From Candidatus Babeliales bacterium (GTDB lineage: Bacteria > Babelota > Babeliae > Babelales > JANWKD01): 64,000 nucleotides of DNA. Every line of letters starts with the position of its first letter. The first letter of the stretch is position 1. The stretch lies in assembly GCA_963722255.1 (NCBI GenBank), contig CAVRJO010000001.1, positions 544,001 through 608,000 of the forward strand, read 5' to 3'. The notes under the pieces were generated by a model. The model ran no database searches. It was not told where the DNA came from and saw nothing but the letters and a program-made list of their open reading frames with translations. Positions 40,189-42,662 of this stretch are shown here, piece after piece. The position numbers and the translations under genes were made by a program.

Positions 40189-41643
40189 TTACTTTTCCAC
40201 TTCTTTATTTTTTTTAACACGCGCTGTAACGACTTTTGCAAAGGTAGGAAAATCAAATAATTTTAACTTAGTGCTGGTATGTTTTCGTAGAAACAACCTA
40301 CGCTGATCAGGAAATTCTTTATAATCCAACGTCGCAATAGCTGAAATATATTCTTCATTGATCTCCGCTAAACATTTTTTTGACGCAGTATCAATCACTT
40401 TTAATGTACCTAAATTATCTATAACAATAAGCGATGGATCCAATGCTGCTAATGCATATATAACATCAGTACAAATTTTTTGTTCTTCATGCCCTGAAGA
40501 ATCATATTGCATGAGAATATTATCACCAATGAAAATTTTATTATTGAGGAATAGCAATTTTGAGACTTTATTGTTTTGCTTTTGTATTGTTTTAATGCAT
40601 TGATAGCTATCAACATTCCAAAATTTAATAGTTCTTGAACTTGATACTAAAATACCACGTGGCAACAATAACAAATCTTTAACTCCAACCTTATCATCTT
40701 CTATACAGTGTAATAGTGTACCATCTTTACTTGCTACTATTTGAATACCAAATTCTAGAGCTACAGCAATCCGATCTTTATCGATAAATCTTATTGCTCG
40801 GGGTTCCGAAAGCATACCAAACTTAATTTTCCAACATGGTTCTGAACTAGTACCCGCACTATCAAATAATACAATATGGCCAAATATATTTCCTGTTGCA
40901 ACTAATTTTTTATACTTTTCAATAATCTTAGACGAATGAATATTATCATGAAAACAATGTAAAGATTCCATATAATTATCTAGGCCATAAACACACAGTG
41001 TCTCATCTGCAAAAGCTAATAATAACTTTCTTTTTTTTAGTTTAATTCCTTCAATAGTCTTTTTATAGTCGATTTTTTTAGACTCAATAACAAATGCATC
41101 ATCAGACCATGCAAACTCTTCTTTAATGCGATGCGCAATTGACTGGGGTAGAGTTTCTAATATTTCTAAATACTCAGATTGATTATTTTCATTAATGGTC
41201 GACAGTTGCTTAATTGCTAAAGAAATGAGCCGTTGGACATTAACATCTGAATCACAAACAATTCTTACTGCGTCATTAAACCATGTATAAAATATTGGAT
41301 TACCCATATCATTCAGCTTTTGCCATCGATGCTTATTTTCATCATAAACTTCAACTTCTCGATCATTGAATGCAAATCTTGCTTTATGAAGTTTAAAAGC
41401 ACAAAAAAGGTCTCTGAGCGCTTCTATTGTCTCTTCAAAAGTTTCAGGTTCTGCATCCAAAGCAACCTTTTTTTCTTGTACATATTTTTTCAACTGCTTA
41501 GATAATTTAAAAGTTACCACAGAATCGAGCACGAGAACTTTATCTTTTTGGCGTATCTTTTCCATACCCATGAGTAATGAACTGTGCATAAACACTAGAG
41601 AAGAAACAATCAAAAATGTGCAATGACGATTACGCTTATTCAT
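40189..41643 (-). CDS. Secreted protein: novel N-domain with F-box-like motif plus WD40-like beta-propeller
   Basis: Signal (MGME); LETLPQSIAHRI; LVSSSRTIKFWNVDSYQCIKTI WD40-type repeat. Confidence 0.78.
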   Translation of the reverse strand: MNKRNRHCTFLIVSSLVFMHSSLLMGMEKIRQKDKVLVLDSVVTFKLSKQLKKYVQEKKVALDAEPETFEETIEALRDLFCAFKLHKARFAFNDREVEVYDENKHRWQKLNDMGNPIFYTWFNDAVRIVCDSDVNVQRLISLAIKQLSTINENNQSEYLEILETLPQSIAHRIKEEFAWSDDAFVIESKKIDYKKTIEGIKLKKRKLLLAFADETLCVYGLDNYMESLHCFHDNIHSSKIIEKYKKLVATGNIFGHIVLFDSAGTSSEPCWKIKFGMLSEPRAIRFIDKDRIAVALEFGIQIVASKDGTLLHCIEDDKVGVKDLLLLPRGILVSSSRTIKFWNVDSYQCIKTIQKQNNKVSKLLFLNNKIFIGDNILMQYDSSGHEEQKICTDVIYALAALDPSLIVIDNLGTLKVIDTASKKCLAEINEEYISAIATLDYKEFPDQRRLFLRKHTSTKLKLFDFPTFAKVVTARVKKNKEVEK

Positions 41644-41744
41644 AAAAATACCTTTTGATAAGAAACTATGCATAATAGAGTGAACGTTTCTTTCAAAAAG
41701 CCCACTACCTACAACAACTTTAACAGTTAAATTTTTGAAATACA

Positions 41745-41787
41745 TAAAAAAACAACTAAACATAGATTCTACGTTTAGTTGTTTTTT
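41745..41787. terminator. Terminator hairpin
   Basis: AAAAAAACAACTAAAC...GTTTAGTTGTTTTTT. Confidence 0.7.
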
Positions 41788-41801
41788 AAATTTAAGATTA
41801 A

Positions 41802-42662
41802 TTAGTTACCGGTTTGAGCCGGCCGTCTCAAATGAAGTGTAAGAAGAAAAATATCAGTTTTAAAACTATTCATGACCTCTTTAACAAATCTATCATCTTC
41901 TAAGGGCTCACTCAATTCACTCCCGATCCAAAGTGTCCATTTATTAGCTTTTCTCAAAGCACATAATGATTGTTGATCAACAGGGATTCCTTCCCGATTG
42001 AGCACTTTTTCTTTTAAATAAGCTACAGTTGTAGTATCGCCGACCTTATAATCACCTGCATATTTCAGCTTAGTCTCAATGCGCACCTCATTTGCATGCT
42101 TATACTGCTCATCAAGATCGTTCCAAATATATCGCTGTAGAATACGCTGCTTAACAGGAGCCGGAAGTTCTTCTAATAAATCTAAATGTTTTGTTACCTT
42201 ATTTTTATTTTCTTGCCAAAACTGTTTCCTTGCTAAAGCAATCAATGCTTTGACATCTTCATTTGAAACACAAATAGCTCCTACTGATAGATTAAACAAT
42301 TCATACAATGGATTTGCCCCAGTATCAGCCAAAGTTAGCCATGCATTTTCAGTGTGACTATAAATTGCAATGGACTTGTTATTAAATGAAATTTCTTTGG
42401 GGCTATAAAATTGAAGAGATCCTAAAACACCATATAATAAGGTAACAGTTTCTTGAATTGTTCGCGGCCTTAAAGCCAAAGCATCTTTAAGCGGTTTATA
42501 GCTCTTAACACCATTATTAAAATGTTCTAAAAAAAGGTGCGCTGCTTCATAATCAGTTAATAACTCCTCTTGCCTTGGCTTTTCATGCGTATAATCTTCC
42601 ATAGCCACTAAAGAGCATGTCATAAAGCCCATGATGCAAAAACTGAAAAATGACAATTTCAT
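41802..42662 (-). CDS. Secreted protein: shared N-domain plus C-terminal ubiquitin-like domain
   Basis: Signal (VAME); TVAYLKEKVLNREGIPVDQQSL...LEDDR...LLTLHLR closely parallels ubiquitin. Confidence 0.82.
   Translation of the reverse strand: MKLSFFSFCIMGFMTCSLVAMEDYTHEKPRQEELLTDYEAAHLFLEHFNNGVKSYKPLKDALALRPRTIQETVTLLYGVLGSLQFYSPKEISFNNKSIAIYSHTENAWLTLADTGANPLYELFNLSVGAICVSNEDVKALIALARKQFWQENKNKVTKHLDLLEELPAPVKQRILQRYIWNDLDEQYKHANEVRIETKLKYAGDYKVGDTTTVAYLKEKVLNREGIPVDQQSLCALRKANKWTLWIGSELSEPLEDDRFVKEVMNSFKTDIFLLTLHLRRPAQTGN

Follow-up and report, generated by a model that had tools for sequence, protein, structure and literature searches.

A tandem pair of leader-bearing Babeliales proteins with a shared helical domain and exchangeable WD40 and ubiquitin-like payloads

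Amoeba-associated bacteria are already known to encode effectors that act on the ubiquitin system, and the F-box and BTB effector expansions of Parachlamydiaceae, Legionellales and Amoebophilus are the best described of these (PMC4209131; F-box and WD40 domains in TM6, PMC4776705). We describe two genes, gene A (P0001) and gene B (P0002), in a 64,000-nt stretch of a Candidatus Babeliales bacterium genome (contig CAVRJO010000001.1, positions 544,001 to 608,000), which as a whole we call the window. Like the known expansions, the pair is tandemly duplicated, joins a modular N-terminal domain to a repeat domain, is patchily distributed among close relatives and has the host ubiquitin system as its likely target; unlike them, it has no F-box or BTB signature, carries Sec-type leaders and uses a ubiquitin-like domain (UBL) as a payload. 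The phylum, Dependentiae/TM6, consists of parasites of eukaryotes with Sec export and numerous leader-bearing ORFans, and ankyrin, WD40 and F-box domains have been described in it (PMC6561590, PMC4776705). In agreement with this placement, among FtsY relatives with lineage names those of Dependentiae/TM6/Babeliales were nearest, at 53-57% identity versus 33-45% for other groups (21 loci, of which the top one and one other bear no such name).

Two further systems invite comparison. The VHL- and SOCS-box receptors of the cullin-RING ligases (CRLs) CRL2 and CRL5, together with their viral mimics (MGF505-1R of African swine fever virus and orthopoxvirus ANK/BC proteins; PMC4878042, PMC13342108), place an L-x3-A-x3-hydrophobic helix and then an LP helix beside a repeat domain, as our pair does. 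BfUbb of Bacteroides fragilis is, like the gene B UBL, bacterial, leader-bearing, ubiquitin-derived and devoid of the terminal glycine, but it is a free-standing protein with 84% similarity to human ubiquitin and is inhibitory to bacteria (PMC5705921), whereas the gene B UBL has diverged much further, contains a 14-residue insertion and is joined to a domain of 150 aa. In the open-access literature we found nothing on the shared domain, on VHL/SOCS boxes or on the UBL family in Dependentiae; comparative-genomics supplements may list UBL domains.

A shared domain family with exchangeable payloads

The pair was first noticed in a reading of the DNA letters (the sequence-only reading), which proposed tandem secreted paralogues with a novel shared domain. 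Both open reading frames (ORFs) are indeed present, 38 nt apart on the minus strand, and residues 99-221 of P0001 align with residues 59-182 of P0002 at 31% identity over 124 residues (BLASTP, E 4e-20); the motifs that it quoted are the invariant columns of this pairwise alignment. Its coordinates stand as well, but the true start of P0001 is likely to be Met41 (41643) rather than the one called, because the hydrophobic leader begins there. There is no third full copy of the domain among the 7851 six-frame ORFs of the 1.6-Mb genome.

Single-protein searches recovered only P0002 itself and, for the gene A domain, one relative, and the ESM Atlas yielded no usable match to the shared domain. Iterative profile searches of 261 genomes of the phylum (numbered with a G; G000 holds the window pair) gave strong full-domain matches in four, G000, G109, G110 and G224. 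Ten genomes passed E 0.01: besides these four, G034 has a box-only match and five were judged to be chance. After inspection we rejected G052, G157, G147, G030, G144 and G161 as chance carriers and dropped G202, a 34-aa frame, on the same grounds; weak profile matches of like strength included clear chance cases such as an acyl-CoA ligase and a tRNA ligase. A genome of the same genus, G108 (99% complete), had no family member by profile search. From 1.84 billion representative proteins we retrieved 35, of which 34 are credible once P0033, a repeat-driven match, is set aside. As for other tandem pairs, no relative was found among the 595 candidate metagenome stretches scanned. The family is real and previously undescribed.

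Members begin with a leader, followed by the domain (about 150 aa) in single or double copy, a payload and, frequently, a PTF helix behind the payload. The payload can be a WD40 propeller, a UBL, a small unknown domain or nearly nothing (P0013 has almost none), so that the modular architecture claimed from the two window genes is now seen across 34 relatives with swapped payloads. The UBL fusion is not a one-off, since P0002 has an orthologue over its full length, P0024 (38% across 287 columns, E 4e-59); P0001 has orthologues in P0004 (43%, E 3e-121) and P0026 (27%, E 4e-53). In a tree of 33 rows, from which fragments shorter than 120 aa were left out, P0001, P0002, P0004, P0024, P0026 and P0032 form one clade with support of 100/99, and the UBL branch is nested among WD40 bearers within it, which suggests that a UBL took over from a WD40 payload once inside this clade.

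Some relatives lie in settings of their own. Tandem arrays of three family members adjoin gyrB in G110 (L006:7742-11625) and G109 (L020:7479-11078), and one G109 ORF shares its last 13 residues with the adjoining gyrB, either a duplication scar or an assembly artefact. In G224 (L022:5270-9869), the stretch between the HAS-barrel gene and ftsY encodes three proteins, whose domains were named by eye: one is a family member, one has an array of C2H2 zinc fingers, and one is a propeller protein of Skp1/BTB-like type. All three have basic C-terminal tails, and we read the position as a variable effector slot; in the window, the same slot holds three unknown leader-bearing ORFs (8501-10766).

Payloads, leaders and tails

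The predicted WD40-like propeller of gene A was confirmed: the best Pfam propeller match has E 1.4e-6, under the curated cut-offs, and that of the orthologue P0026 reaches E 2e-21. The PTF helix behind the propeller is missing from gene B.

For gene B, Pfam's ubiquitin family (PF00240) matches the C-terminal domain at E 2.8e-5 (24.2 bits versus a cut-off of 25.4), and in the PDB a profile of its 10-member UBL subfamily finds single ubiquitin chains (E about 2e-9), the match spanning residues 2-45 of ubiquitin. The homology seen by the sequence-only reading is therefore sound, as is the absence of a terminal GG (P0002 ends in PAQTGN and P0024 in RPQTNN), but the close parallel that it drew with ubiquitin concealed a 14-residue insertion behind an ellipsis: the loop has 18-19 residues in P0002 and P0024, several of them aromatic, versus 5 in ubiquitin-like rows. 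We read positions against a near-ubiquitin Babeliales row, using standard ubiquitin numbering. The I44 equivalent is Cys in both P0002 and P0024, the K48 equivalent is not Lys, and L8 and V70 are not kept in an alignment whose registers are uncertain at these positions. Judged by its sequence, the gene B UBL cannot be conjugated, and established ubiquitin biology makes the usual mode of binding to proteasome receptors unlikely for it. Proteasome shuttles with a UBL and a ubiquitin-associated (UBA) domain are of the Rad23/Dsk2 type; they too have a non-conjugatable UBL within a larger protein, but the gene B UBL is C-terminal and does not keep the hydrophobic patch, and Pfam finds no UBA domain in either window protein. 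The suggestion that gene B is a proteasome shuttle is not supported, given the lost I44 and K48 equivalents, the insertion on that face and the missing UBA.

A single-sequence model of P0002 was unusable (predicted local distance difference test, pLDDT, 35), and a joint alignment of domain and UBL was dropped because it misplaced the last helix, which leaves the UBL without a confident model; its beta-grasp fold is predicted from homology, and the ESM Atlas offered only ubiquitin leads below 0.9. PF00240 matches 23 of the 261 phylum genomes at E 0.001, 14 of them above the cut-off, and about a dozen of the 28 UBL loci that we read are small, leader-bearing, stand-alone UBLs laid out like the P0002 domain. 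In the four other genomes of the domain family, no relative of this P0002-type subfamily was found. Gene B is best read, from these comparisons, as a fusion of two Babeliales modules. Leader-bearing UBLs of about 120-150 aa with the post-I44 insertion occur at L101, L082, L087, L088, L090, L094, L099, L103 and L106, and near-ubiquitin domains lie inside longer leader-bearing proteins in G232 and others.

By leader shape, both proteins are predicted to be secreted, as the sequence-only reading claimed: each has a hydrophobic leader (hydropathy of 2.1-2.6 over 10 residues), of a shape found throughout the family. Among 26 apparently complete members, 10 have C-x-x-x ends, nine of them CaaX-like (versus 25 of 1285 ORFs of the window's own genome), and three end in a basic run. 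CaaX-like and basic tails make sense only in a eukaryotic cytosol or nucleus, and host prenylation of bacterial CaaX effectors has reportedly been studied. Taken together, the leaders and the tails of the relatives make Sec export followed by arrival in the host cytosol likely.

The end of the shared domain and its possible partners

Given 34 rows, AlphaFold2 predicts the shared domain with a pLDDT of 83 and a predicted template modelling score (pTM) of 0.75, as three helices, a three-strand hairpin and then four to five helices (89-104, 106-121, 124-134, 139-146 and a low-confidence last one). In both proteins the domain ends with L-x3-A-x3-L/F and then LP-x2-I/V-x3-I. The printed BC-box consensus is (S/T/P)LxxxC/S/Axxx-hydrophobic with a downstream Cul2-box pattern (PMC4878042, PMC13342108); both window proteins have three of the four BC-box positions and the entire Cul2-box pattern. 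The BC-box core is kept in five of six rows of the pair's clade, and the LP helix adjoins the payload directly, as in ligase substrate receptors. The domain end possibly fits a VHL-type box better than an F-box, at the level of motifs and within the pair's clade.

We tentatively propose that the two proteins are VHL-type adaptors through which the WD40 or UBL payload reaches an Elongin BC-cullin ligase of the host. The tandem paralogues, built from one helical domain with interchangeable payloads, would both be exported into the protist host, where the last three domain helices would form a VHL-type box and attach the payload to this ligase rather than to Skp1. In the weakest step of the scheme, the box would bind Elongin C and Cul2/5. 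Selection of host substrates would then fall to the gene A WD40 propeller, and the gene B UBL would serve as a non-conjugatable binding module whose inserted loop, rather than the ubiquitin patch, sets the partner.

The family profile also matches stand-alone boxes just behind the leader in a WD40 protein of G034 (E 2.7e-4) and in an ankyrin protein of the window's own genome (E 1e-3). One of the 261 genomes, G184, has a SOCS box above the Pfam cut-off (G184:C1:1365008-1365115; L060), and in G224 a box-plus-WD40 gene, read by eye, lies immediately beside a family member (L122:313-1356). Going by sequence, Elongin BC binding seems more plausible for such stand-alone boxes than for the window pair. 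Further SOCS/VHL-type boxes of this kind are found in Babeliales ankyrin and WD40 proteins at G000:C1:774337-774837, G000:C2:7257-9245, G000:C2:91798-93120 and, in G034, L028:1402-2988.

Several observations weigh against the Elongin BC proposal. Unlike known VHL and SOCS receptors, the pair has a first BC-box residue that is not S/T/P, carries its motif behind a novel subdomain of about 100 residues, gives no profile or fold match and is bacterial; in the model, the BC-like helix sits in the compact domain and may be buried. Counted on 30 of the 34 family rows, the BC-box core is present in just five, all of them in the pair's clade, and the Cul2-box pattern, found in 22 of 28 rows, is one of low information. 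Neither gene is matched by the SOCS_box or Elongin_A profiles, and the structural matches listed include no VHL-, SOCS- or F-box chain. Compared with four independently chosen boxes, the clade profile reached E 0.15 over the LP helix only, with 7 of 40 shuffles as high, and the significant box-profile scores depend on two boxes that had come from the search with the family profile itself. As for delivery, CaaX and basic tails are both absent from the window pair, and the relatives that bear them are connected by descent rather than independent cases. The other family members, over the same LP helix only, scored E 0.006 against the independent boxes (1 of 40 shuffles as high), and a regular-expression census of BC-plus-LP motifs showed no enrichment (6 of 1285 ORFs versus 0-8 in shuffles). 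About as likely as the VHL-type adaptor, and just as tentative, is that the domain serves docking, targeting or export in a lineage-specific way and binds something other than a cullin ligase; the LP helix would then be a structural cap before the payload and the box likeness a relic or chance. This would suit the 25 of 30 rows that lack the BC-box core and still keep the LP helix, the many members with small unknown payloads or nearly none, and the lack of any significant sequence or fold match; it sits less well with a clade that keeps the L-x3-A-x3-hydrophobic core across 27-45% identity, with two payloads that are both typical of the ubiquitin system and with the presence of similar stand-alone boxes in the phylum. 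Far less probable than either, we think, is the model of the sequence-only reading, in which the LP opens a Skp1-binding F-box and cargo is carried to the proteasome by the UBL, even though a helix and a WD40 propeller come after the LP and Babeliales, this genome included, do encode F-boxes. A scan of five genomes with PF12937 found nothing at gene A or gene B and, as a positive control, picked up two other F-boxes above the cut-off in the same genome; F-box profiles also failed to match 13 family domains (among the 25 best of 29 families listed) and the two isolated box segments of the pair. From the LP (L166 in gene B) to the first UBL strand there are about 26 residues, versus the 47 positions of the F-box profile and the roughly 45 residues expected between the LP and a substrate-binding domain, and in this span the model gives one confident and one low-confidence helix. 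With a profile of six Babeliales F-boxes, the alignment to the family is confined to nine columns at the LP (E 0.038), a score that 2 of 40 shuffles reached. With profiles negative, the span too short and nine columns aligned, we rejected an F-box identity for the domain end, and the loss of the I44 and K48 equivalents and of any UBA speaks equally against the shuttle.

Fold comparison raises another candidate, an unlikely one in our estimate: the shared domain could be a cullin-derived fragment (either a cullin repeat or the opening part of the four-helix bundle, interrupted by a hairpin). In that case gene A would join a receptor to a mini-cullin, and gene B would imitate a cullin modified with NEDD8 or ubiquitin and act as a decoy for host CSN, CAND1 or ARIH-type factors. 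At E 0.001, Foldseek matched the domain to nothing in the PDB and viral libraries, and exhaustive structural alignment against 48,161 chains gave no Z of at least 5. Within that ranking, however, places 1, 2, 4, 5, 17 and 40 are taken by cullins or a subunit of the anaphase-promoting complex, led by CUL1 333-456 (Z 4.8, root-mean-square deviation (rmsd) 4.3, 107 aligned) and including CUL9 (Z 4.7, rmsd 5.2, 110 aligned); CUL1 recurred in a second look (Z 4.1, rmsd 5.4, 129 aligned), behind VPS35 and a designed protein. Over both looks, the cullin matches span Z 4.0-4.8, rmsd 4.3-5.6 and 105-142 aligned residues. All of these scores fall under the level that unrelated helical bundles attain and are tied with a mitoribosomal protein and VPS35, and the cullin matches lie on differing repeats. 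We built cullin profiles from the five or six usable, Pfam-confirmed cullins of giant-virus contigs. With five, the best match fell on the structurally matched region (E 0.32); with six, it moved elsewhere and did not rise above shuffles (as high in 5 of 60 and 16 of 60), and further modes fared similarly (8, 16, 5 and 19 of 30). PF00888, the Pfam cullin family, misses both genes and is above its cut-off in none of the 261 genomes. The repeat and four-helix bundle of CUL1, CUL3, CUL9 and APC2 is thus the best yet weak structural match (Z up to 4.8), a lead only, which sequence comparison does not support; unlike cullins, the shared domain has a hairpin insertion, and Pfam finds no RING-binding or neddylation domain, for which neither protein has room. 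The wider scenario is a long shot to the same degree: Babeliales would have captured a eukaryotic cullin piece as a portable effector domain, with the WD40 fusion as receptor and scaffold in one chain, the UBL fusion as an imitation of a modified cullin that traps host cullin regulators, and CaaX or basic tails routing other copies to membranes or nucleus. Quite improbable, finally, is that the proteins have the periplasm or the bacterial surface as their site of action, or other bacteria as their target. Sec-type leaders reach only the periplasm barring a second step, and BfUbb, a leader-bearing ubiquitin without the terminal glycine, does act on bacteria (PMC5705921), but the relatives carry CaaX-like and basic tails and the lineage lives inside eukaryotes.

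Most known effectors by which amoeba-associated bacteria exploit host cullin ligases are F-box or BTB proteins, so a bacterial family acting through Elongin BC or a cullin-like module would, if true, be a new route; a mycobacterial protein is reportedly the subject of a study on engagement of CRL2. Two undescribed Babeliales families of small soluble proteins are in any case defined here, one of them with a good model.

Elsewhere in the window's genome, two leader-bearing true F-box proteins form a tandem pair (G000:C2:565227-566351; L066, L069). Giant-virus contigs encode an Elongin C homologue (L157:229-735; E 3e-46 to a solved Elongin C) and, at L137, L139, L140, L141, L143, L148 and L158-L162, full-length cullins and Skp1 homologues.

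Feature coordinates and neighbouring genes

Table 1. Features of the gene pair, in window coordinates; residue numbers of gene A follow the called start.
Feature	Position	Strand	Basis or remark
Gene B (P0002), 286 aa	41802..42662	minus	Leader, shared domain, ubiquitin-like domain
Signal-peptide-like leader, gene B, aa 1-20 (predicted)	42603..42662	minus	Hydropathy 2.08 over 10 residues
Shared domain, gene B, aa 36-189	42096..42557	minus	Profile envelope; AlphaFold2 model
Box-like end, gene B, aa 139-174	42141..42248	minus	BC-box-like ALIALARKQF, Cul2-box-like LPAPVKQRI
Ubiquitin-like domain, gene B, aa 192-281, without terminal GG	41820..42089	minus	Pfam and subfamily profile
Insertion loop, gene B, aa 235-253, after the I44 equivalent	41904..41960	minus	Alignment; typical of the Babeliales stand-alone UBL subfamily
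Gene A (P0001), 524 aa as called	40189..41763	minus	Leader, shared domain, WD40 propeller, tail helix
Signal-peptide-like leader, gene A, aa 41-66 (predicted)	41566..41643	minus	Hydropathy 2.64
Shared domain, gene A, aa 79-228	41080..41529	minus	BLASTP and profile envelope
Box-like end, gene A, aa 178-213	41125..41232	minus	RLISLAIKQL, LPQSIAHRI
Divergent WD40 beta-propeller, gene A, about aa 232-505	40249..41070	minus	Pfam propeller families
PTF helix motif, gene A, C-terminal, aa 506-519	40207..40248	minus	Behind the payload in many family members

Other genes of the window include a carotenoid oxygenase of the RPE65 family (34674-36281), an Mrr-helicase with treble-clef zinc fingers (47269-50071), a Bro-N protein (50867-51793) and a 1186-aa ORF without a Pfam match (51912-55472). 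Candidates for host interaction nearby are a WD40 protein (45088-46581), ankyrin proteins (33648-34490 and 23606-24736; Pfam), a protein with weak leucine-rich repeats (60911-61957), a Bax-inhibitor-1 family protein (59867-60562) and a T2SS-F/pilus protein (30268-31467). An insertion sequence at 43089-44020, 427 nt upstream of gene B, has 27-nt terminal inverted repeats (93%) and a transposase split in two frames, 43249-43605 (HTH_Tnp_4, E 1e-14) and 43782-43994.

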